From a virus (Duplodnaviria > Heunggongvirae > Uroviricota > Caudoviricetes), in IMG/VR virus record IMGVR_UViG_2529292718_000021: 13,463 bases of DNA; one strand, given 5' to 3'. Position 1 is the first letter of the stretch, and every line of letters begins with the position of its first letter. The position numbers were made by a program, and so were the translations under genes. Below, in pieces: positions 3,900-12,980 of the stretch. The notes below the pieces were generated by a model that did no database searches, had not been told where the DNA came from, and saw nothing but the letters and a program-made list of their open reading frames with translations.

Positions 3900-4074
3900 G
3901 CCAACAGGAACACCACAACCACAAAAACGCTACAAAGATGCCCACGGAGCACTCGTTACTGTCGAAAGCGTGTCTCACAACCGAGTGACGTTTTATCGCG
4001 ACGGGTATCAATCGCCATGCGTACAACCGCTGGCACGTTTCATGAAGGAGTTCGCGGAGGTTAACAAATGCTAA
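3892..4074 (+). CDS. DUF4222-like small prophage protein (60 aa), start overlapping the antirepressor stop.
   Basis: Translation ...HGALVTVESVSHNRVTFYRDGYQSPCVQPLARF... fits the DUF4222 pattern as remembered; translational coupling. Confidence 0.6.
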   Translation: MSKPTGTPQPQKRYKDAHGALVTVESVSHNRVTFYRDGYQSPCVQPLARFMKEFAEVNKC

Positions 4075-4505
4075 CCGTCCAGAAGAAGACATTTTCACTG
4101 GCAGGTATGTCGCCAAAATCCAGCAATATGACGGCAAAGTCAGGCATTAATACAGCAGATACAAGCAAAGTTTATCATTTGCTGGTGGTCGGAACGGATG
4201 CCTTAACCATACCAGAAATCTCGGGCGATGATATTAGCATTGAGAAGGTCAGCGGCTGCGCCAGAAAATTTCTGGTCGTAGATGATGTCTTCCGCTCGTG
4301 TAGTGACTCCACAAAAACATTCGTCCACGTGCGTGACGTTAACGAAATGAGCGCGATGTACTGTGCATCTGGTGCTTCCAATACTGAGTTTTCGGAGTCC
4401 ATAAAAAAGAGCTTGCCGTTATGCGGCAACACGGTTTATGGTTATAAGGCACCTCATAAAACGGGTGCCGGGATTAGGACCCCGCAGGCAATCGAGGCGA
4501 TACAT

Positions 4506-4526
4506 GACGCGCCAGCGTCTTTTTTT
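4506..4526 (+). terminator. Candidate intrinsic terminator inside the immunity-like leader upstream of the Icd-like gene.
   Basis: Stem GACGC (4506-4510) / GCGTC (4515-4519), loop GCCA, followed by seven T at 4520-4526. Confidence 0.4.
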
Positions 4527-4534
4527 GTATCGGC

Positions 4535-4665
4535 GCACACGCACACCTTATCAATGGTGGGCTGTATGGGGCTGACTTCGGTCAGGCTGGTTTCCTTGAT
4601 TGCCAGTAGTCCTAACCCTGTACAGTCCACCGCCAGCGAGCTTAGGACCTCCGGCGGTGGCTATA
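4535..4665 (+). ncRNA. Candidate structured leader / antisense-RNA-type immunity element (C4/CI-like), tentative.
   Basis: UUCG-tetraloop hairpin CTGAC-TTCG-GTCAG at 4572-4585; 8-bp complementary pair CCACCGCC (4627-4634) / GGCGGTGG (4653-4660) immediately before the Icd-like RBS. In P1 and P4 the icd/immunity genes are preceded by a processed antisense RNA. Coordinates approximate. Confidence 0.25.
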
Positions 4666-4690
4666 AACCATCAATCAAGGAGGCTGCCAC

Positions 4691-4885
4691 ATGCTGGCTA
4701 CTACCCCTACCCAAAAACCGCAATTTATCTGGATTATCGCCGCAGTTCGCCGCGATTGCCCGACAATTACCGCCAAAATTCATCATATTGCTGCCGAGTC
4801 TGAACGCGATGCTCGCCGTTCTCTGGTGCGCGATCACGTCTGCTTTTTTGCTGGTCGTATCCGCATGGAGGTGGCACATGATTAA
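4691..4885 (+). CDS. icd: Host cell division inhibitor Icd-like protein (64 aa).
   Basis: Perfect SD AAGGAGG 7 nt upstream; translation QFIWIIAAVRR...ESERDARRSLV..FFAGRI fits the Icd-like pattern (F.W...A.RR...ARR.L...FAAR) as remembered. Confidence 0.75.
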   Translation: MLATTPTQKPQFIWIIAAVRRDCPTITAKIHHIAAESERDARRSLVRDHVCFFAGRIRMEVAHD

Positions 4886-5096
4886 AACCTACGATGTGCA
4901 TATGGATCCCCTCGAACGCACAAGCCAGATCATCACACTGACAGAAGTGATTAACGACATTCTGGTGAGCAACTCTCCCTCACGAGACGAAAGACTGAAG
5001 GCGTTACTCGCGATATTGGATCTCGCCGTTCGTGACGTTCATTTCCTGCTGGAAGGTGGCGAAATGCCAGTAAAAACGGGGGCAACCAATGAATAA
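4878..5096 (+). CDS. Hypothetical small protein (72 aa), overlapping the icd stop by 8 nt.
   Basis: SD GGAGGTGG upstream of ATG 4878; helical, protein-like translation. Confidence 0.6.
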   Translation: MIKTYDVHMDPLERTSQIITLTEVINDILVSNSPSRDERLKALLAILDLAVRDVHFLLEGGEMPVKTGATNE

Positions 5097-5761: not shown

Positions 5762-5839
5762 TTTCTTAACTTTCCATGCAGAAGCAACGCCTGACGGCGT
5801 AAACATCATGTATGGCAGCAGAAATCAGAGAGGTAAAAC

Positions 5840-6577
5840 ATGAACAATAACTATTGCATACTGCAGGGAATGACCAGAACGGAGCGCGAAGAATTAAAAA
5901 GTTTCGCTACACAGTGCGGGAATGCTGGCGACATCCAAAGTCTGGAACGCACTTTAATTATGATTGCGCACTGGATGCGCCAGGGGCAAAGAGTTTCATT
6001 TACTGAATATGCCAGCCAGTGGACAGAGGCACAGCGCGAACGGAGCGACGGTAATCACTCAACACCCGAAATGGCGAAGCAATGGCCTTTCAGTGGTAAA
6101 CGCTGTATCAGTCCCGGTGGTTCAGATTATTACCCTGCTGGTGTGGGAGATGAGCCATGTTGTGACGAGACTGAAATCCGCCACGCAGTGACAGTAATTA
6201 CCGCTGAATACCCACAATTTAACCTTGACGGACTGGCGCTCCACAACCGGAATGCGGACTGGGAAAACCCGCTTGATAACCCGTCATTTATCGTATCGGC
6301 GAAAAGCTGCCTGAGATGGATCAGAGACAACGGGATGAGTAATGCCCAGATTGAGAGCTTCCCGCAGGATAACCCCACATCTGACACGTTGAAGCATGAA
6401 GTGGAGCGATATAACCAGATAAACCACCAGCACAGTGATCACCCGCACTATATCCCCAACGGAGCATTTATTGCGGCGATGGTGGCAAGCGGCTACAAGG
6501 TTAAGCCAGCGGGAAGAATGAACGCATTTTTCAATATTTCAAAAAAGGGATTATGTGCTGCTATGGGTAAAAATTAA
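5840..6577 (+). CDS. Hypothetical protein (245 aa), last gene of the small-gene operon; sits immediately upstream of an iteron-like repeat cluster.
   Basis: SD GAGAGGT upstream; long ORF; family not recognised by eye. Confidence 0.75.
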   Translation: MNNNYCILQGMTRTEREELKSFATQCGNAGDIQSLERTLIMIAHWMRQGQRVSFTEYASQWTEAQRERSDGNHSTPEMAKQWPFSGKRCISPGGSDYYPAGVGDEPCCDETEIRHAVTVITAEYPQFNLDGLALHNRNADWENPLDNPSFIVSAKSCLRWIRDNGMSNAQIESFPQDNPTSDTLKHEVERYNQINHQHSDHPHYIPNGAFIAAMVASGYKVKPAGRMNAFFNISKKGLCAAMGKN

Positions 6578-6582
6578 ATAAA

Positions 6583-6686
6583 TGGTACAGGTCTGTACAG
6601 GTGGGGAGAGGTCATTTTTACCCACCTGTACCACCTGCAGGCCGCGCCACACAAGGGTTTGTGACATGGTGGTACAGGTGGTACAG
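6583..6686. repeat. Iteron-like cluster of GGTACAGG(TGG) motifs in direct and inverted orientation; candidate origin or operator array.
   Basis: Copies at 6584-6591, 6594-6604, 6622-6631 (inverted, CCACCTGTAC), a degenerate one at 6633-6641, and 6671-6686 (two overlapping). All in non-coding DNA just after the 245-aa gene stop. Confidence 0.6.
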
Positions 6687-6840
6687 CAAAAACAGCGATT
6701 TTCTTTATAAGGTATGTTTTGCTCATCTGGCAGACGGAGGTATTCGCTGCGGTTTGGCACATAGCCCAGAACAGCAAAGAGTTTTACGAGACTTTTGTAA
6801 AATCCAGTGTACAAGGGCGTGACGTTTTTGAAGGTGAGCA

Positions 6841-6857
6841 CTACGAAATTTTCGTAG
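6841..6857. repeat. Perfect palindrome CTACGAAA-T-TTTCGTAG; candidate protein-binding site.
   Basis: 8-bp arms are exact reverse complements, read directly. Confidence 0.5.
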
Positions 6858-7051
6858 TTCAAAAAATAGCCTCTGAGATGTTGTTATGCCTGTTCAGCAA
6901 ACCATCCGCATAGCTGATCGCGAATCAAATTACCAATGGAGCCAGAAGCAAGGGCAGAACTGGAAAGCGCCTGCCGTGAAGAGTAATGCGACTCCATAAA
7001 TATAGTTTTTAGAGTCCATAAAAAAACTGTCAAAACCTGACATACAGAACG

Positions 7052-7084
7052 ATGCCACCAGCTACTGAACGGTGGCATTTTTTT
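7052..7084 (+). terminator. Rho-independent terminator.
   Basis: 8-bp stem ATGCCACC (7052-7059) / GGTGGCAT (7071-7078), 11-nt loop, followed by a T-run at 7079-7084. Confidence 0.7.
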
Positions 7085-7117
7085 GTGCTATTTGTTTCAT
7101 ATTTTGCAATCACAATG

Positions 7118-7146
7118 ATGAATGTTGCGTTTTATGAAACTATAAT
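7118..7146 (+). promoter_or_regulatory. Candidate sigma70 promoter for the RHH/447-aa/705-aa operon: consensus -10 TATAAT at 7141-7146 with a weak -35.
   Basis: Perfect TATAAT hexamer about 35 nt upstream of the ATG at 7181; strong SD AAGGGGGG at 7169-7176; directly downstream of a terminator. Confidence 0.35.
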
Positions 7147-7180
7147 GACTGTTGTTTTATACAGTTCTAAGGGGGGCGTT

Positions 7181-7354
7181 ATGGCTATTTCAGTAAAGCC
7201 AGTATTGATAAGTGAGAAGCAAATGGAAGCGATAAAGAAAATTCAGGAGGAGCAGCGTAAAAAATCAGAGGTAGGAGTTGCGCCAACGATCCACGAAATT
7301 GCTCGGGGATTAATGGATAAGGCGCTGGCTTACACTTTAACTGGACGTGGGTAA
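7181..7354 (+). CDS. Small protein (57 aa), putative ribbon-helix-helix-like DNA-binding protein; first gene of the operon.
   Basis: Strong RBS; N-terminal beta-strand-then-helix pattern (ISVKPVLISEKQMEAIKKI) is consistent with an RHH fold. Fold assignment is a guess. Confidence 0.55.
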   Translation: MAISVKPVLISEKQMEAIKKIQEEQRKKSEVGVAPTIHEIARGLMDKALAYTLTGRG

Positions 7355-7358
7355 ATTT

Positions 7359-8702
7359 ATGGCTACGTGGCAACAGGGTATTAATTCTGGTGGTTTTCTG
7401 GCTGGCATCGGTGCGCAAAATGAGAATGCGCCAAAGGCAAGCGACATTAACGCAACGCTTGGTCTGATCCGCGAAAACAATGAACTGGCTCGCTCAGGTG
7501 CAAATAACGTTGCTCTGACAGGTCTTCGTGGTCTGGCTGGAGTTGCTGACATTTATAAGCAGCAGCAACAGCAGGAACGTAAAGCGGCATTCCAGAAAGG
7601 TTATGCAGATGCTTATGCGTCCGGTGACAGGGAGCAGATGCGTAATCTTATTACAGCATTCCCAGAAGAGTTTGAGGAAGTCCGTAAAGGGATGAGTTAT
7701 GTCGATGATGCTCAAAGGGATGATTATGGCAATCTGGCGCTCAAAGCACAGGTAGCCTCATCGCTTGGTCAGGGCGCATTTGGCAGGTTCATGATGGATA
7801 ATGAGCAGGAGATGCGTCGTTTAGGTATCCCTCCAGAAACTATTGCTGAAATGCAGGTTAATGACCCGCAGGGCTTCCAGCATTTCGCAGGTAATCTGGC
7901 GCTGTTTTCTCTCGGTCATGAGAAGTATTTCGATATCAAAGATCAAATGGAAGGTCGTCGACTTGAGCAAGGGCGACTGGATGAAAGTATGCGTCAGGCT
8001 GACATGGAGAACGCGAGAGGATGGGCAAATATCCAGAACGCTCAACTAGACAGGGCTCAGCGAGCACAAATTCACTCAGATGAGATGGGATTGAAGCTAA
8101 TGGAGCTGGGGCAAAAAGGTAAGCCGTCAGCAGACTTAATTAAGGGATTAAATTCTGACATTACCAATTTTGGCAAAAATTATAACTCTGTCAGAGCGGC
8201 GGCAAACTCTCTGCAAGCCCTTAGCAAGGTAAATACTGGCGCTGCCCAACTTGGGATTATCTTCAACTACATGAAATCTCTTGACCCGCAGTCAGTCGTT
8301 CGTGAAGGCGAACAGGTTCAGGTAATGCGGTCTGATGGCATATGGGGACAAATCAAAGGATACATAGACCAGCTTAATGCTGGAAACGGCCTGTCGCAGG
8401 AGGCAAAGGATAACATTGTTAACGCCGCAAAAATCAACGCCAATGCTATGGGGCAGCAGTTTAACCAGCAGGTTGACGAGTATCTCGATACATATGGAGA
8501 AACTATTCCTCAGGGGCTAAGAAAAAGCCTTGAAAGAAGGAAAGCGAAGCTATTTGACGATGTTTCCGGGCAGCCTACATCACAGGCTGGCACTGGACAG
8601 GCAAAAGCGGCAACCGGAGGAATATCAGAAGGCGCAACGGCAACCAACCCTAAAACTGGTCAGAAAATCATTTACAGGAACGGAAAATGGCAGCAAATGT
8701 AA
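7359..8702 (+). CDS. Large hypothetical protein (447 aa from ATG 7359; 451 aa if GTG 7347 is used). Gln/Asn/Ala/Gly-rich, predicted coiled-coil, no catalytic motif seen.
   Basis: Long ORF; poly-Q tract (QQQQQ); no Walker A, no HxH or other enzymatic signature by eye. Confidence 0.8.
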   Translation: MATWQQGINSGGFLAGIGAQNENAPKASDINATLGLIRENNELARSGANNVALTGLRGLAGVADIYKQQQQQERKAAFQKGYADAYASGDREQMRNLITAFPEEFEEVRKGMSYVDDAQRDDYGNLALKAQVASSLGQGAFGRFMMDNEQEMRRLGIPPETIAEMQVNDPQGFQHFAGNLALFSLGHEKYFDIKDQMEGRRLEQGRLDESMRQADMENARGWANIQNAQLDRAQRAQIHSDEMGLKLMELGQKGKPSADLIKGLNSDITNFGKNYNSVRAAANSLQALSKVNTGAAQLGIIFNYMKSLDPQSVVREGEQVQVMRSDGIWGQIKGYIDQLNAGNGLSQEAKDNIVNAAKINANAMGQQFNQQVDEYLDTYGETIPQGLRKSLERRKAKLFDDVSGQPTSQAGTGQAKAATGGISEGATATNPKTGQKIIYRNGKWQQM

Positions 8703-10804
8703 TCTTACCGGAAGGTTTTGTGCTCGATGAACAACCTGATAACTCACAGTTTCCTGATAGTTCACAGCTTCCTGATGGTTTTGTGCTTGATGCCCAACCA
8801 GAACAGCAGCAATCACCTTTGGTTTCACCAGAGGAAAATTCCAGACAGGAAAATGTTGTTAATAATGCTAACGGTTTCGACCGTTTTATGTATGGCGTTC
8901 TCAGTGGATTGATGGATGTTGGTAAAGGTGTTGGCCTGTTTCAGGATATGACACCAGAAGAGCAAGCCGCAATTCAGTCTCTACAGCAGAAGTTAGCGGC
9001 AAAACCATCAACCGCACAAGATGTTGGTGAGTTCGTTGGACAAGCAGCGCCATTTGTTAGTGGTGGTGGGATTATTTCTCAGGTTCCCAAAGGGGCGGCA
9101 AGACTGGCTGCCGCCGCAGGGCTTGGGGCTGGAGAAGGGGCTATTGTAGCCAATGGAACAAATAGCGATGTTGCTTCCGGCGCTGCTATTGGCGCTGTGG
9201 CTGGCCCTGTAGCCGAACTTGCTGGCCCTGCAATTAATAAAATAGCTGGGAAATTAACCAAGAAGAATGTTTCTTCGATTCCAGATATTGAGGGGATTAC
9301 TCCTACCGAAGAGAAAATTCGTAAGTTATCTGCACAAGGCAACCCAAATCTTGCCTCTTCGCTTGAAGGGCTAGATCTAAAACCTCAGAAAGAAATTGTT
9401 GAGGCTGCAAATAGGCTTCATGTTGATTCAGTTCTTCCTTCTCATTTATCAGGAAATGAGCAATACCAAGCTGTAGAGCAAGCCCTAAAGTCACGGACAG
9501 GATCAGCGTTAAAAGCTCAAGAAGATAAAGCAATAAGCGAATTAGCCTCTAGTGCTGGCAAGATAATCGATGATGTTGCTGGTGCGCCAGATGCGTTAGC
9601 TATGAGCGAAAAATATATTTATCAGATAAATAGTAGAATGGAAGCACTAAAAAACCGTAGTGATCAGTTATATAAACGTGTTGATTCCGCTCTATCACCA
9701 AGAACAAAAGTCGAAGCAAATAACACAAGCACTATGCTGGAAAAAATCGCTGATGATTTAGGAGGGTGGGATAATCTTGACCCAATAGAAAAGCGAGTTT
9801 TTACAGCAATAAACCCCGGCCCAGATAGCATCCTAACGTATGCAAATTTAAACAGGCAAAGGCGTTTAGTTGGTGATGCCCTAAATAAAAAGCAGGGGCC
9901 ATACAAAGATGCTGATAAAGAAGCGCTATCAAGACTATATGGAGCTTTAGCTGAAGACCAAAAATCTGTCTTATCCAATACTGGATACTTGCGAGATTTC
10001 GAAGTCGCACAACGCCTTGTAGCTATGAGAAAAAACTTAGAAAGGCAAATGGTAAATCTTCGCGGGAAAACACTTAATGGGGATATAGCGTATAAAGTAA
10101 CGAATTCTCTTCAATCTATGGCAAAAGGTGATGCGAGAGGGTTTCGTGAGATTATGCAAAATACTCCATCAAGAACATTGCGAAGGGAGCTAGTAGGAAC
10201 AGCATTAAGAGATATGCTTTCCTCTGGGAAGCGTGGGGCCGACTTTAATCCATCTGGCTTTGCAGATTGGTGGCAAAACTTGCAACACAGTGGACAGCTA
10301 AAGACTTTGGCTGAACATTTGCCAAAAGAAACAATGAGCGGACTATATGATGTATACAAAGTTGCCAGAGCAATAAAAAATGCTAAAGCGCATGAAATAT
10401 CTACTGGTAAGCTGAATGAGTTTGTAAACAGATTTAATCGGGTAACAGCTCCATACGAACTAGCAGCAAAACACATTCAAAAAATAGGCACGATGGTACG
10501 CGCTCATTTTGGATCGCTTGGAGCCATTGCTGGGGCTGATATTGGAGCAAGATTGGCGAGTAAAGCTCGATTAGCTGGTGGAGCAGGGGCGGCTGATGCT
10601 GCGGATAAATTAATTGCCTCGCCAGCCTTCCAGAGCGCAGTAAAAAATCTACACGGAAAAGCGCCTGGGCACATTGTTGATTCACGTATCAGGCGCTCCC
10701 CTCAATGGAAGAGTTTTTTTAACTCTCTTCCTGAACAGGAAAAACGGACCATCGCCAGACTGGGCATCATTACTTGGCTATCTAATGATCCAGATAATGA
10801 CTAG
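8687..10804 (+). CDS. Large hypothetical protein (705 aa), start overlapping the upstream gene by 16 nt. Has an N-terminal tandem peptide repeat and Gly/Ala-zipper-like segments; the gene is compositionally mosaic.
   Basis: Repeat LPEGFVLDEQP / LPDGFVLDAQP (DNA repeat GGTTTTGTGCT[C/T]GATG at 8714-8729 and 8777-8792, 63-bp period); segments such as AAAAGLGAGEGAIVANG and GSLGAIAGADIGARLA; the 5' third is near backbone GC while the 3' ~1.5 kb is clearly AT-richer. Confidence 0.85.
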   Translation: MAANVILPEGFVLDEQPDNSQFPDSSQLPDGFVLDAQPEQQQSPLVSPEENSRQENVVNNANGFDRFMYGVLSGLMDVGKGVGLFQDMTPEEQAAIQSLQQKLAAKPSTAQDVGEFVGQAAPFVSGGGIISQVPKGAARLAAAAGLGAGEGAIVANGTNSDVASGAAIGAVAGPVAELAGPAINKIAGKLTKKNVSSIPDIEGITPTEEKIRKLSAQGNPNLASSLEGLDLKPQKEIVEAANRLHVDSVLPSHLSGNEQYQAVEQALKSRTGSALKAQEDKAISELASSAGKIIDDVAGAPDALAMSEKYIYQINSRMEALKNRSDQLYKRVDSALSPRTKVEANNTSTMLEKIADDLGGWDNLDPIEKRVFTAINPGPDSILTYANLNRQRRLVGDALNKKQGPYKDADKEALSRLYGALAEDQKSVLSNTGYLRDFEVAQRLVAMRKNLERQMVNLRGKTLNGDIAYKVTNSLQSMAKGDARGFREIMQNTPSRTLRRELVGTALRDMLSSGKRGADFNPSGFADWWQNLQHSGQLKTLAEHLPKETMSGLYDVYKVARAIKNAKAHEISTGKLNEFVNRFNRVTAPYELAAKHIQKIGTMVRAHFGSLGAIAGADIGARLASKARLAGGAGAADAADKLIASPAFQSAVKNLHGKAPGHIVDSRIRRSPQWKSFFNSLPEQEKRTIARLGIITWLSNDPDND

Positions 10805-10809
10805 TGAAT

Positions 10810-10823
10810 GGCCACGGATGGCC
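10810..10823. terminator. Short inverted repeat GGCCA-CGGA-TGGCC between the convergent 705-aa and membrane-protein genes; weak candidate terminator.
   Basis: 5-bp GC-rich stem followed on the + strand by moderately T-rich TCAATCTTTATTCTTT. Confidence 0.35.
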
Positions 10824-11249
10824 TCAATCTTTATTCTTTGAAATAGAGTCATTGATCTTTTCGAAACACCAATGAAATCCACAAAAGAGAGCTACACCAA
10901 TATAACAATACAAAACTATCAACCACCTTTCAGTGTCCGAAGGGTAAAAAACATCAATTACATAAGCAACACCAATTGGTATTAATGCTAGTAATAACAT
11001 CGACACAGGACGTACAAACTTCTGAACTATATCAATTTTATAGAACCACAAGGCGGTATGTTTAATGATATAAGTAAAGATGGCTGCGCCAATAATGGCA
11101 AAAAACACCATCGATAAAGTCGGGTATAACTTTGCGACAATTAAACCCAACAAAATAATTATAACTGCCTGCCCCCTCACACCAACCCTCCCTTTAGCTT
11201 TGTTTAGAATGGCAATCATCATATATCCAAGACATGGCATTTGGTACAT
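10824..11249 (-). CDS. Integral membrane protein (141 aa, about 4 predicted TM helices), AT-rich, convergent with the 705-aa gene. An in-frame GTG at 11180 preceded by GGGAGGG may be the true start.
   Basis: Four hydrophobic stretches of 18-21 residues (AVIIILLGLIVAKLY, LSMVFFAIIGAAIFTYII, VSMLLLALIPIGVAYVIDVFY, WLIVLYCYIGVALFCGFHW); low GC. Confidence 0.75.
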   Translation of the reverse strand: MYQMPCLGYMMIAILNKAKGRVGVRGQAVIIILLGLIVAKLYPTLSMVFFAIIGAAIFTYIIKHTALWFYKIDIVQKFVRPVSMLLLALIPIGVAYVIDVFYPSDTERWLIVLYCYIGVALFCGFHWCFEKINDSISKNKD

Positions 11250-11295
11250 AGCTTGGGTCGGGATTTCAAATCCGCTCCCCGTTGATGGGGCCGTT

Positions 11296-11442
11296 ACAGT
11301 ACGCGCATATCCGCTTTATGTGAAACAGGAAGATTTTTCTGATATCACTGTCACAGCAAAACACCAATTTCGTGACCAGTACGCGCGCGAGGTGTATCAG
11401 TTGCAAAATTTTTTGCAGCTGTGTCCGACCAGTACGCACGCG
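11296..11442. repeat. Three degenerate copies of a GC-alternating motif (ACAGTACGCGC, ACCAGTACGCGCGCG, ACCAGTACGCACGCG) plus palindrome TGCAAAA-TT-TTTTGCA at 11402-11417, in DNA with no convincing gene.
   Basis: Motifs at 11296-11306, 11375-11389 and 11428-11442. They fall in different reading frames relative to the overlapping ORF 11080-11478, so the repeat is at DNA level. Confidence 0.55.
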
Positions 11443-11660
11443 ATGGCGGGGAGCACCATAAAACTGTTCTCTACATAAGACAGAGTGGTGGTGATGTGTT
11501 GATTATCGGCGTATATGCGCACAGGACGCGCTATGACGATGTTTTATGCGGGTACACCAATCACATGTATCTGGTGTGATAAATCGCGTTACATGACCTC
11601 TCATGTTGTGCTGGTGGTTATCACGACGTTCTGAATCTGGCCTTTGCCTGATATTTTGCG

Positions 11661-11680
11661 ACAAGTACGCGCGCGTAGCA
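11661..11680. repeat. Well-conserved copy of the ACAAGTACGCGCGCGTAGCA element, containing the perfect 12-bp palindrome TACGCGCGCGTA.
   Basis: Near-identical to the copy at 13030-13050 including flanks (TTTGCG-ACAAGTACGCGCGCGTAGCA). Confidence 0.6.
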
Positions 11681-11703
11681 TCGACAGCATACACATTGGA
11701 TAT

Positions 11704-11904
11704 TCATTTTGTGACCAATGCGATAAGTAGCGGGATAAGAATTGATAAAATCAACAGGACGATGATCCACTTCTGATTCTCGTCCATCTTATCTGCTAGG
11801 CGACGCTCCATTCCGTGCATATCACCGCGAATGGCAATCATCTCATTGCGAACATCCGAGAAGTGGTTGGCTTGATGTTCAATGTGTGGCGTTCTGCCTT
11901 TCAT
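11704..11904 (-). CDS. Small membrane protein (66 aa), N-terminal charged/coiled region plus a C-terminal TM helix; XhlA-like prophage protein (tentative).
   Basis: C-terminal WIIVLLILSILIPLLIALV hydrophobic helix; architecture resembles short XhlA-family proteins as remembered. Confidence 0.55.
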   Translation of the reverse strand: MKGRTPHIEHQANHFSDVRNEMIAIRGDMHGMERRLADKMDENQKWIIVLLILSILIPLLIALVTK

Positions 11905-11983: not shown

Positions 11984-12439
11984 TTATACGCTGACCTTAC
12001 AATCAATCACCGCTTTTAACTTTTCAGCATTGCTTCCCTGACGCTTCCACGCGCTGTAAATATCTTTATCCCACGCTTTACCAGCTTTTGTTTGATAGCC
12101 TGCTTCATTGATCCGTTCAGCTATCACACGCCCATTATCAAATCCCTGTCGGATGGTATCGGCAATGATCTTTATAACTGCCGTTTCGTTATATGGCTTT
12201 GGTGGGATGTTCGGCTTTCCGGCAATAAGCGACGCAGCGGCTTTTTCCATGCGCTCCACCAGCCCAAGCATTCGTGAATCAATAGACTTTTTCGGCTGTC
12301 CCAGCTTCATGCGAATCGCATCAACAAGCCAGGAGGTTTTATCTCCTCCAGAAGCGAGAACAGACCGATTAAACTCATCCTGCAATTCAGATGGGATGCG
12401 GAACGCGACCAGATTAGATTTGCTCATTGCAAAGACCAT
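11984..12439 (-). CDS. Ribbon-helix-helix (Arc/Mnt/CopG-like) DNA-binding protein with a C-terminal extension; putative repressor. Alternative start at 12427.
   Basis: N-terminal NLVAFRIPSELQDEFNRSVLASGGDKTSWLVDAIRMKL follows the Arc/Mnt RHH pattern (compare P22 Mnt FNFRMPMEVREKL...); palindromic operator-like site immediately upstream. Confidence 0.7.
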   Translation of the reverse strand: MVFAMSKSNLVAFRIPSELQDEFNRSVLASGGDKTSWLVDAIRMKLGQPKKSIDSRMLGLVERMEKAAASLIAGKPNIPPKPYNETAVIKIIADTIRQGFDNGRVIAERINEAGYQTKAGKAWDKDIYSAWKRQGSNAEKLKAVIDCKVSV

Positions 12440-12698: not shown

Positions 12699-12980
12699 AT
12701 GATAAGGGACAGGAAAGCTGAAGAGCTGGAGTCAAAAGGGCTATACCGGAGAGCTGCCGCACGATGGATGGAAGTCATGCTGTTATGCACCGAGGACGAT
12801 GATCGGGAATGGATAAAGCGCCGCCGTGAAACGTGTCTGGAGAACGTGAAGCGCCCGCCCGTGAAGGTTGAGGAATTTGGCGACCTGCATAAAGCTGTTA
12901 CCGAAACGCAACACCGCATGGGGATAGCGCAACCGAACGGTAACGCCTTCCGGTTAAATGGCGGCAAGAGGCAAAGGTAG
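12699..12980 (+). CDS. perC: PerC-family transcriptional activator (93 aa).
   Basis: N-terminal MIRDRKAEELESKGLYRRAAARWMEVM matches the conserved PerC/Pch N-terminus as remembered. Confidence 0.8.
   Translation: MIRDRKAEELESKGLYRRAAARWMEVMLLCTEDDDREWIKRRRETCLENVKRPPVKVEEFGDLHKAVTETQHRMGIAQPNGNAFRLNGGKRQR

Follow-up and report, generated by a model that had tools for sequence, protein, structure and literature searches.

P22-type ejection-protein genes form a swappable cassette in an EcCIMP1-like phage satellite of Escherichia coli

Three closely packed genes and a convergent membrane-protein gene, at positions 7052 to 11249 of a 13,463-nucleotide stretch of viral DNA (IMG/VR record IMGVR_UViG_2529292718_000021; "the window" below is this whole stretch), raise the question of what they encode and what they do for the element that carries them. 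The original prediction described an insulated operon with a terminator, a TATAAT promoter, a strong ribosome-binding site (RBS) and genes for proteins of 57, 447 and 705 aa, facing a gene for a protein with four transmembrane segments (4-TM), and all of these parts are present with small coordinate corrections. It also found no assignable family for the two large proteins and ranked the block as the window's best candidate for something undescribed. No signature is indeed visible by eye, but profile searches assign both proteins at once, to the gp20 and gp16 families of phage P22. The homology is confident, but the head/tail late operon expected beside such genes is absent, which is what makes the block interesting.

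The window represents an E. coli phage satellite (PICI) that resembles EcCIMP1 and is integrated between yicC and dinD. EcCIMP1, a phage-inducible chromosomal island from E. coli MP1, was published by Pick, Stadel & Raivio in 2025 (ISME J, PMC11773190), so the element family was already on record. The two backbones show 93–97% DNA identity across the regulators, the promoter/leader region and the right arm, and share int, an AlpA-type HTH gene, a PM1773-like gene, AntA, DUF4222, Ash and small ORFs, followed by the leader gene with the E-protein operon and then PerC. They differ in the integrase and in the site, which is tRNA-Thr in EcCIMP1, and comparison with EcCIMP1 indicates that the primase is deleted in the window's copy, so this island may have lost the ability to go through the whole satellite cycle. 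The ORF list and profile searches revealed no capsid or tail genes in the window, and the profile searches found no recognizable terS, pac or rpp gene in its island. Kapi1 induces and transduces EcCIMP1, transduction being low only, and Kapi1 titres after induction are unaffected by EcCIMP1 (PMC11773190). EcCIMP1 also gives superinfection immunity against Kapi1, a phenotype left unmapped by Pick et al., who remarked on "DNA transfer"-like genes (EcCIMP1_017–019) and guessed at a packaging role; PICI packaging genes are usually kept downstream of the primase (PMC11773190). Their paper did not recognize the ejection-protein set, the gene at the sieA locus, the promoter with its LexA-like box or the cassette slot common to several genera that are described below. 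Homology to Kapi1 implies a putative helper of the same type for the window's island.

Gene 20 (7359–8702, plus strand) starts 4 nt past the stop codon of the leader gene and encodes a 447-aa P22 gp20-type ejection protein, that is, a periplasmic conduit protein. The protein matches Pfam PF16928 (Inj_translocase) over residues 16–223 at 2.5e-73 and phrog_917 at 4e-132, and is 75% identical to gp20 of Kapi1, 72.5% to gp20 of SEN22 and, over the first 212 aa, 54% to gp20 of P22. The gene is a mosaic in which the first 200 codons are 99–100% identical to island L004 and the 3' half is 86–97% identical to Kapi1 at the DNA level. Gene 16 (8687–10804, plus strand), which shares 16 nt with gene 20, an overlap also seen in Kapi1, encodes a 705-aa P22 gp16-type ejection/DNA transfer protein, the membrane-associated conduit protein. 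It matches phrog_6704 at 1.3e-174 and phrog_770 at 1.6e-50, the latter being the profile that P22 gp16 itself matches at 2e-266. Identity is 41% to the Kapi1 gene-16 product and 61% to gp16 of phage L014, and residues 208–701 are 63% identical to Sf101 and APC_JM3.2. The predicted 21-residue tandem repeat at the N-terminus is as described (LPEGFVLD at residue 7, LPDGFVLD at residue 28); among the compared proteins, Kapi1 gp16 is the only other one with the LPxGFVLD repeat.

The convergent gene (10824–11249, minus strand) lies in an AT-rich region (GC 0.37) and encodes a protein of 141 aa, or 131 aa from the RefSeq start, with four hydropathy peaks. The 19-bp gap between it and gene 16 holds the small GC hairpin that had been pointed out, GGCCA-CGGA-TGGCC (10810–10823), for which the terminator scan made no call. 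In P22 and HS1, sieA is likewise convergent and about 20 bp past gene 16, with gaps of 22 and 21 bp; the gap in the sister island L006 is 18 bp, and that island holds a true SieA homologue at the sieA position (E 6e-11 to HS1 SieA, NRYPGEA motif, phrog_7745). The window's protein is not a SieA homologue, as it has no SieA motif, a BLAST E of 4.5 and an hhalign probability of 0.1–1.3%, and it matched none of the PADLOC models. Its family is narrow (17 representatives among 1.84e9 proteins). The relatives P0015 and P0008, 42% and 47% identical, in every case lie convergent as the next gene past gene 16; this holds for P22-like phages (L009, L014) as well as for islands (L010, L011). Position alone makes the 141-aa protein a candidate superinfection-exclusion factor.

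The arrangement thus resembles the Lederbergvirus late operon at its immI border, where gp7, gp20, gp16 and sieA are encoded in P22, in the gp20 N-terminal domain family, in gp16 by profile and in the order 20, 16 and then a convergent inner-membrane-type gene about 20 bp on. Unlike P22, the window's island is without gp7, gp14, coat, portal, tail and tailspike genes, and has its own satellite promoter and leader gene in place of a late operon; its membrane protein is also unrelated to SieA. The earlier suggestion of consecutive podovirus DNA-transfer proteins beside an exclusion-type membrane protein was therefore essentially right: the 20-16-sieA order and the ~20-bp convergent geometry match P22, and relatives of the membrane protein always occupy the sieA locus.

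All elements of the operon control region (7044–7176) are on the plus strand. An intrinsic terminator hairpin with a T-run (7044–7086) insulates the operon from the island genes upstream. Its stem ATGCCACC/GGTGGCAT and the following T-run occupy 7052–7084, where the scan lists 7061–7076 plus the T-run, and the inverted repeat covers 7044–7086. The terminator is 93% conserved in EcCIMP1, and a comparable GC hairpin and T-run lie upstream of the promoter in the Erwinia, Chimaeribacter and Serratia silvae loci. The −35 region is spanned by an operator-like inverted repeat, GTTTCATA ... TATGAAAC (7094–7140), which is complementary at 8/8 positions, has the inner half-sites TTGCAAT/GTTGCG and contains a TTTCAT..TGCAAT / ATTGCA..TGAAA motif conserved in 12 genera. 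The −10 hexamer TATAAT (7141–7146) recurs in almost every one of the 22 related loci; it has no good consensus −35, and the consensus scan did not list a full sigma-70 promoter there.

A LexA (SOS) box-like palindrome, GACTGTTGTTTTATACAGTT (7147–7166; CTGT-N8-ACAG), begins 2 nt past the −10 and overlaps the site where transcription is expected to start. This single occurrence in the window is weakly improbable by itself (chance expectation 0.14; at least one in 25 of 200 shuffles). Across the related loci the box is found at the same position in 18/22 and is absent in two; spacing is the canonical N10 in 10 of the 22 (14–17/20 consensus matches) and the non-canonical N9 in another 10. LexA control of the cassette operon is predicted from this box. 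The Shine-Dalgarno sequence AAGGGGGG (7169–7176) serves as the RBS of the leader gene, whose ATG is at 7181.

The leader gene (7181–7354, plus strand) encodes 57 aa, the mechanical ORF from 7052 being an over-extension of it. The protein is specific to the window's satellite family, in which it is conserved at 53–60 aa. Phage genomes yielded no match to it, and its homologues come from Escherichia, Serratia, Klebsiella, Erwinia, Raoultella and Salmonella. The alignment has 21 invariant columns, and dN/dS is 0.04–0.19. The AF2 model (pLDDT 75) shows a coil at 1–11 and helices at 12–28 and 37–53, with no fold matches and no profile matches. The RHH-like label previously attached to it comes down to a strand-helix-helix pattern, and the leader is a possible candidate for an RHH-type regulator.

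We found that gene 20, gene 16 and the membrane gene move jointly as a cassette (7330–11254) between flanks common to EcCIMP1 and recombine with P22-like phages (Lederbergvirus), Kapi1 among them. The flanks are 93% (6778–7329) and 95% (11255–11684) identical to EcCIMP1, whereas the interior has no nucleotide similarity: EcCIMP1 carries 14-7-20-16(SLT) and a same-strand lipoprotein gene in place of 20-16 and the convergent 4-TM gene. The variants comprise 20-16, 14-7-20-16 and SLT-16, and the downstream gene is non-homologous among them (4-TM protein, SieA, lipoprotein or periplasmic protein). One island gp16 is 99.7% identical to that of a real P22-like phage, and cassette segments show 85–97% DNA identity to Kapi1. 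Between EcCIMP1 and Kapi1, gp14 is 83% identical, whereas gp20 and gp16 are only 26% and 24% identical. The cassette genes are under purifying selection, with island-to-island dN/dS of 0.30 for gp20, 0.15 for gp16 and 0.10 for gp7 within an overall range of 0.04–0.30, which excludes the pseudogenes that the original prediction had allowed for. Among 5,426 complete E. coli genomes, 521 (~10%) contain the slot and 85 the whole cassette. Decayed copies also occur: L005 is truncated after gene 20, and the tape measure of Serratia silvae is truncated.

Across the family, the place past the primase position serves as an insulated slot dedicated to expression, built from the terminator, operator-like repeat, TATAAT, LexA-like palindrome, strong RBS and conserved leader. 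The promoter and leader gene head the slot in 22 loci from about a dozen genera, and an EcCIMP1-type primase is present in all 18 loci from other species. In other genera the cassette products are tape-measure proteins (phrog_1107, E=0), T7_gp14/internal virion proteins or a baseplate hub, and no convergent envelope gene is evident beside the tape-measure-type cassettes; a TerS-like gene adjoins the cassette in the Rahnella and Raoultella relatives. Given these contents, the slot would in general provide genome-delivery parts specific to the helper type. Staphylococcal PICIs have a comparable LexA-controlled helper-exploitation operon, SaPI operon I, which likewise follows the replication module, carries virion-related functions and has an SOS box at its promoter. 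However, it encodes terS, capsid-size and interference proteins and no genome-delivery proteins, and its LexA control contrasts with one that is predicted here from a box non-canonical in half of the loci. The capsid-forming PICIs (cf-PICIs) likewise depart from the rule of "no structural genes", since part of the virion is encoded in them, but theirs are capsid, portal, connectors and terminase, and they steal tails; the window's family has none of these four and only envelope-penetration and delivery components.

These data lead us to infer that the proteins for genome delivery come from the satellite itself, together with an exclusion gene. When a P22-like helper turns lytic, the cassette operon would be switched on, probably through SOS/LexA in the E. 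coli group, and satellite gp20 and gp16 would be loaded into procapsids built by the helper. P22 virions incorporate foreign E-proteins, gene 20 works only with its matching gene 16 while gp7 is interchangeable, and mutations that escape SieA lie in gp16 and gp20 (PMC10883804). Because gp7 could be obtained from the helper and the matched pair could not be split, only 20 and 16 would be needed. In the next infection, the satellite proteins would form the trans-envelope DNA conduit. Since SieA-type exclusion targets gp16/gp20, a divergent pair could bring DNA into cells closed to the conduit of the helper itself, helper lysogens being one case, and it might also widen the delivery range. Produced from the integrated island, the membrane protein would exclude incoming P22-like phages; the superinfection immunity that EcCIMP1 gives against Kapi1 speaks for an exclusion gene in the slot. 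Against the model stand the unaffected Kapi1 titres and low transduction of EcCIMP1 (PMC11773190), the lost primase, a membrane protein that matches neither SieA nor any PADLOC model, a LexA-like box with N9 spacing in 10 of the 22 loci and none in two, and tape-measure-type cassettes with no convergent envelope gene evident beside them. The identity and context of the element and its genes are near-certain, while we hold this functional model itself tentatively, at slightly short of even odds; for the explanation as a whole we would put the probability at roughly 0.5.

The module might instead serve interference or defence, the satellite conduit proteins co-assembling with the helper's own (gp20/gp16 here, tape measure or hub elsewhere) as poison subunits that leave helper virions mismatched and non-infective, like other post-primase PICI genes. 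Mismatched gp20/gp16 are non-functional in P22, where Sf6 gene 16 or 20 alone gives <10^4 PFU (PMC10883804), SaPI/PICI genes past the replication module typically have interference functions under LexA control, and the cassette proteins are all low-copy initiator or penetration components. We consider this unlikely, as EcCIMP1 did not lower Kapi1 titres after induction (PMC11773190), poisoned particles would carry the satellite genome too, and full 14-7-20-16 sets with a gp16 nearly identical between island and phage suggest working parts, not decoys. The earlier idea of a satellite-encoded helper-manipulation or defence module did place the module in the right context. Toxicity, with the membrane protein as cognate immunity protein, was also proposed, and large secreted-looking proteins do adjoin a small membrane protein; nothing else supports it. 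Homology and synteny with virion ejection proteins are confident, profile searches and PADLOC found no toxin or bacteriocin domains, and the downstream gene changes from variant to variant, which makes this the most improbable reading of all.

Mosaic breakpoints, the 85–97% DNA identity to Kapi1, the decayed copies L005 and Serratia silvae and the lost primase could also point to passenger DNA, a captured fragment of the 20-16-sieA region of a P22-like prophage with no satellite role or at most an exclusion-gene moron. This is improbable in view of the purifying selection between islands, the conserved promoter and leader dedicated to the slot in 22 loci from about a dozen genera, the recurrence of non-homologous cassettes of the same functional class and the slot's frequency of about 10% in complete E. 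coli genomes. Rather less probable still is a role in packaging or capsid morphogenesis (Pick et al.), or as a homology patch for recombination into helper concatemers and headful packaging. The position past the primase is the usual place of PICI packaging genes, the island has no recognizable terS, pac or rpp, stretches are 86–97% identical to Kapi1 DNA, and a TerS-like gene adjoins the Rahnella and Raoultella cassettes. Yet P22 gp20 and gp16 are dispensable for DNA packaging, mutant particles being DNA-filled and non-infective (PMC10883804); a homology patch would not need purifying selection on protein sequence, and gp20/gp16 of EcCIMP1 are only 24–26% identical to those of Kapi1.

We therefore retain delivery by satellite-supplied proteins as the best reading. 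We believe four observations to be new: the 20-16-membrane genes as a swappable cassette between conserved flanks and under purifying selection; a non-SieA membrane protein whose relatives always occupy the sieA locus; a conserved promoter, LexA-like box and invariant small leader heading the slot in 22 loci; and the use of that slot in other genera for tape-measure, podoviral internal-virion or baseplate-hub genes. The tape-measure and internal-virion proteins found in the same slot elsewhere suggest that satellites of this family bring their own genome-delivery parts.

The operon is present in the window essentially as the original prediction described it, with a terminator, a promoter, a ribosome-binding site, three linked genes, a hairpin and a convergent membrane gene. 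A hairpin (ATGCCACC/GGTGGCAT) with a T-run at 7052-7084 lies upstream of the promoter, whose TATAAT is found at 7141-7146. The Shine-Dalgarno sequence AAGGGGGG (7169-7176) precedes the ATG at 7181 of the leader gene (57 aa, 7181-7354), and gene 20 (447 aa, 7359-8702) starts 4 nt past the leader stop. Gene 16 (705 aa, 8687-10804) is coupled to gene 20 immediately upstream by a 16-nt overlap, which is the same in the P22-like (Lederbergvirus) helper phage Kapi1. The 19-bp gap beyond gene 16 holds a small hairpin, GGCCA-CGGA-TGGCC, and is followed by the convergent AT-rich membrane gene (10824-11249; 141 aa, 131 aa in RefSeq), with four hydrophobic segments by hydropathy. The tandem repeat noted near the start of the 705-aa protein was confirmed (LPEGFVLD/LPDGFVLD, 21-residue spacing).

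The two large proteins had been regarded as belonging to no assignable family. This was wrong, as profile searches place both at once. The 447-aa protein matches Pfam PF16928 (Inj_translocase, described as "DNA/protein translocase of phage P22 injectosome") over residues 16-223 (246.8 bits, cutoff 29.7; E 2.5e-73), and phrog_917 at 4e-132. It is 75% identical to gp20 of the Escherichia phage Kapi1, 72.5% identical to the protein of Salmonella phage SEN22 and 54% identical to P22 gp20 across the N-terminal 212 aa. The 705-aa protein matches phrog_6704 at 1e-174, a family common to the Kapi1 gene-16 product, and shows 41-63% identity to the gene-16 products of Kapi1, Sf101, APC_JM3.2 and E212. 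It has no direct BLAST match to P22 gp16; its residues 113-654 match phrog_770 ("DNA transfer protein", E 1.6e-50), the same model against which P22 gp16 scores 2.3e-266. The Pfam library used did not contain PF26808 (gp16) and PF26849, which makes the Pfam negatives for gp16 and SieA uninformative. In the window gene 16 follows gene 20 and precedes the sieA locus, and the order in Kapi1 and P22 is 14, 7, 20, 16, convergent small genes or sieA, and then the Mnt/Arc/Ant region. The profile matches and this gene order bear out one of the earlier hypotheses, that the two are DNA-transfer proteins of the podovirus type. Sequence search returned no relatives of solved structure for gp20 or gp16.

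In P22 and in prophage HS1, sieA is convergent and lies ~20 bp past gene 16, and the window has the same geometry. The predicted multi-pass topology of the 141-aa protein agrees with that of a protein of the SieA locus, an analogy by position and not by family membership. The protein was rejected as a SieA itself: the motif FxRYPxEAxxFNK is absent, BLAST gave an E value of 4.5, hhalign gave probabilities of 0.1% and 1.3% against SieA profiles (types A-C) of 3 and 13 sequences, respectively, and no match to phrog_7745 was found. A Pfam match to Bax1-I (23.8 bits, cutoff 34.1) was taken as noise of transmembrane composition, and PADLOC matched no known defence system among the 10 window proteins tested, the membrane protein included. 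The family is very small, with 17 representatives in 1.84 billion proteins. The two diverged relatives of the protein, 42% and 47% identical to it, occur in two P22-like phage genomes (L009, L014) and in two islands (L010, L011), and in each case the gene is convergent and directly follows gene 16. Phage L014 pairs a gp16 of the window type (61%) with a membrane protein of the window type (47%). At the same position, island L006 encodes a true SieA homologue of 204 aa (34% identical to HS1 SieA, E 6e-11; phrog_7745), whose NRYPGEA aligns with the SieA motif. A tblastn search of 50,697 phage records found neither the leader nor the membrane protein. The SieA-like protein of L006 was likewise missed by tblastn and was recognised by direct comparison with reference SieA proteins. 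Because the sieA genes of P22 and HS1, the SieA homologue of L006 and the relatives of the 141-aa protein share this position, it would thus represent an exclusion-gene slot, with the 141-aa protein as a positional analogue of SieA. By the same analogy, the EcCIMP1 gene after gene 16, encoding a 232-aa lipoprotein, appears as a candidate for immunity against Kapi1. A convergent envelope gene as a general feature of tape-measure-type cassettes was not supported by crude ORF calls.

Outside the operon, the window encodes a tyrosine integrase, an HTH protein of the AlpA type, AntA, DUF4222, an Ash-family region and PerC; profile searches of this part found neither capsid nor terminase, tail or lysis genes. 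The element measures ~16 kb in E. coli chromosomes, where it lies between yicC and dinD. Its backbone shows 93-97% DNA identity to EcCIMP1, a PICI of 20 kb from E. coli MP1; EcCIMP1 excises only on Kapi1 induction and is transduced by Kapi1 (PMC11773190). The same study noted "DNA transfer"-like genes in EcCIMP1 and proposed a packaging role for them, and it described superinfection immunity of EcCIMP1 against Kapi1 for which no known defence system accounts (PMC11773190). The integrase, the AlpA-type regulator, the conserved gene order and an int-alpA RNA are traits of PICIs. The RNA (Rfam RF02996, 66 bits; 1329-1395, + strand) sits between the integrase gene and its downstream neighbour, as is typical of such islands. 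By the PICI criterion of Fillol-Salom 2018, structural phage genes are absent, and SatelliteFinder treats tail genes as forbidden components. The window encodes two virion ejection proteins, and its relatives encode tape-measure or hub proteins; on structural genes the EcCIMP1-like family departs from the PICI definition.

The window copy lacks 3.27 kb that the 99%-identical island L001 has (L001 14822-18088), a segment encoding a 200-aa ORF, a DUF5906 primase-helicase and most of a 76-aa ORF. At the junction (5811-5820 in the window) the flanking BLAST segments share 10 nt, suggesting a deletion by microhomology. Because the primase, the replication module of the satellite, is lost with this segment, the window copy is probably defective for replication. 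A decayed copy of the same island (L005, NZ_CM173937 3994236-4007802) has a primase truncated to 259 aa, keeps ~107 codons of gene 16 and abuts dinD at its end; intact islands and degenerate derivatives thus occur side by side. The right arm of the window carries genes for a 66-aa protein (11704-11904, - strand; phrog_6324), a 151-aa protein with an RHH-looking N-terminus (11984-12439, - strand; weak match to phrog_30270) and a PerC-family regulator (12699-12980, + strand; phrog_994 at 1e-37). The first two genes are present in island L004 and missing from the otherwise 99%-identical L001. In the left part, Rfam matches at gathering level to isrK (63 bits, 4449-4525) and C4 antisense RNA (80 bits, 4550-4637), both on the + strand, fall within a 342-aa ORF (4068-5096) that RefSeq names "ash family protein". 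The reading frame is probably an over-call, in a region that resembles an RNA immunity locus of the P1/P7 c4-icd-ant or P4 CI type. In EcCIMP1 an Icd-like gene follows immediately downstream.

Homologues of the leader protein are found in Escherichia, Serratia, Klebsiella, Erwinia, Raoultella and other genera, with 21 invariant columns and a dN/dS of 0.04-0.19. The AF2 model (pLDDT 75) has an extended N-terminus and two helices, a predicted shape that fits an RHH monomer, and fold and profile searches gave no support for the RHH assignment. The DNA upstream of the leader gene is kept across about a dozen genera and comprises the terminator, an inverted repeat (TTTCAT..TGCAAT/ATTGCA..TGAAA, 7094-7140 in the window) and the nearly invariant TATAAT, with which no -35 element was found in this region. 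A palindrome CTG-N9/10-CAG lies exactly 2 nt past the -10 in 18 of 22 loci. In the window it is a predicted LexA-like box, GACTGTTGTTTTATACAGTT (CTGT-N8-ACAG, 7149-7164), 2 nt after the -10 and overlapping the promoter. This box is the single CTGT-N8-ACAG in the 13.5-kb window and has 14/20 matches to the LexA consensus (up to 17/20 in Serratia). The spacing is the canonical N10 in 10 of the 22 loci, N9 in another 10 and neither in two, so that LexA control is a reasonable prediction for the E. coli group and not for the whole family. SaPI operon I is a precedent for a LexA-controlled satellite operon. For a late-promoter or qut-like element of the helper, blastn of 6560-7190 against phages returned only patches of 39-110 nt. 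One patch at 6830-6868 (39-45 nt) is 89-91% identical to sequences of Stx2a-converting phages, near an antirepressor gene, and of Shewanella phage ZP9; an overlapping stretch of ~100 nt (6828-6929) is 75% identical to Klebsiella phage phiKp_30.

The leader gene heads a slot downstream of the primase position that is occupied by interchangeable cassettes. With the leader protein as probe we collected 15 further loci from different species, which together with the Serratia, Klebsiella and Erwinia loci make 18. An EcCIMP1-type primase (58-99% identical) lies upstream on the same strand in 18/18, and many of these loci also have AntA and integrase homologues. Escherichia and Serratia have P22-type 20/16 sets in the slot. 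Leclercia, Klebsiella and Pectobacterium have a T7_gp14-family protein with SLT and internal-virion proteins; their homologues include internal virion proteins of podoviruses, for example Pseudomonas phage Ab31 and the Pelagibacter podophages. A 108-aa protein and a bona fide tape-measure protein (phrog_1107, E=0) are found in Erwinia, Pantoea, Chimaeribacter and Lonsdalea, a tape-measure or "tail injection transglycosylase"-like protein in Raoultella and a baseplate hub in Rahnella. Judged by homology, all slot contents are virion components for envelope penetration or the DNA conduit. In the literature we found no paper describing such a cross-genus slot of satellite-borne genome-delivery genes. 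The Tai tail-assembly-inhibition systems, considered as a precedent, are unrelated and are not homologues of virion proteins. Directly after the cassette, Rahnella (L029 12509-13111) and Raoultella (L025 12019-12633) have a small-terminase-like/HTH protein (phrog_51 at 3e-25 and phrog_57 at 1e-8, respectively), which could be encoded by a packaging-redirection gene; no such gene is present in the E. coli islands. Klebsiella, Pectobacterium and Serratia relatives carry probable defence genes on either side of the slot, with an AAA_15/AAA_21 ATPase and a partner gene between primase and leader, and Abi_2 and RnlA/RnlB downstream of the cassette (L017 6348-8330, L023 6058-8393, L034 4953-9242, L015 15650-16612, L016 16949-18162). 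Both sides of the slot are accessory hotspots.

Comparison of the window with EcCIMP1 gave 93% identity over 6778-7329, to the 3' end of the leader gene, no nucleotide similarity between 7329 and 11255, and 95% identity from 11255 onwards. Among E. coli islands, the slot holds leader-20-16 with a convergent signal-peptide protein in L004, leader-14-7-20-16 with a convergent 4-TM protein in L006, and leader-14-7-20-16(SLT) with the lipoprotein in EcCIMP1. The slot, taken as left flank plus leader gene, is present in 521 of 5,426 complete E. coli genomes (~10%), 85 of which carry the exact cassette of the window at 98.7-99.9% identity. Within the cassette the mosaicism is sharp: gene 20 matches island L004 at 99-100% over codons 1-200, DNA identity to Kapi1 is 75-97% from the 3' half of gene 20 to about codon 170 of gene 16, and the remainder of gene 16 is unrelated at the DNA level. 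L009 is a contig of a genuine P22-like phage, having coat, gp4, gp10 and needle genes; its gp16 and the gp16 of island L010 share 99.7% identity, so that alleles are exchanged between phages and satellites. Between islands, dN/dS is 0.15 for gp16 (95 synonymous and 51 non-synonymous differences), 0.30 for gp20, 0.10 for gp7 and 0.23 for gp14. On these ratios, the cassette genes are maintained by selection.

P22 virions incorporate foreign ejection proteins (E-proteins); gp20 and gp16 function only when matched to each other, gp7 is conserved and can be interchanged, and SieA escape was mapped to gp16 and gp20 (PMC10883804). Since the matched pair is needed and gp7 is interchangeable, the 20+16 pair would be a sufficient swap unit. 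The same findings would explain why the gp14 proteins of the validated satellite-helper pair, EcCIMP1 and Kapi1, are 83% identical but their gp20 and gp16 only 24-26%. We infer that particles built by the helper receive from the satellite a conduit with a different specificity, and that the satellite also carries an exclusion gene. In the proposed mechanism, EcCIMP1-like satellites across Enterobacterales would keep a dedicated SOS-linked slot with the invariant leader protein at its head. The slot proteins would match the helper type, as P22 E-proteins, internal virion proteins of podoviruses, tape measures of siphoviruses or a myovirus hub. Built into helper-made virions, they would let satellite-carrying particles use a differing conduit and so bypass superinfection exclusion by resident helper prophages. 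The gene beside the cassette would provide the satellite's own exclusion function and could account for the immunity of EcCIMP1. This reading is tentative, and we give it a probability of roughly 0.4.

The main rival is that the conduit proteins of the satellite act as dominant-negative inhibitors that interfere with the helper, and this is weakened by the finding that Kapi1 titres were unchanged with EcCIMP1 (PMC11773190). Selection on the genes, a promoter dedicated to them and the repeated occurrence of the slot make inert prophage debris an unlikely explanation of the operon.

Both the definition and the computational detection of phage satellites rely on virion structural genes being absent, save for capsid-size or capsid-forming functions. 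The component families described here are known and a 2025 publication already covers the element family; the finding is therefore not categorically new. What goes beyond the existing description is a cassette slot headed by a conserved promoter and leader, the analogue at the sieA locus and the cross-genus pattern of delivery genes. Since PICI criteria and SatelliteFinder bar structural or tail genes, such elements are liable to be missed, and this suggests that satellite censuses with tail genes forbidden undercount them. The idea is directly testable in the existing Kapi1/EcCIMP1 experimental system. If true, it would define a satellite class that current finders reject and a new satellite strategy, in which the injection machinery is swapped and the capsid is not. 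In this widespread satellite family of enterobacteria, a regulated slot is reserved for proteins that move DNA across the recipient envelope. If these delivery proteins are used, satellites can change entry specificity and escape or impose superinfection exclusion. Because PerC-type virulence regulators and defence genes are carried on these islands, gene flow would be affected, as would helper-satellite-host dynamics.
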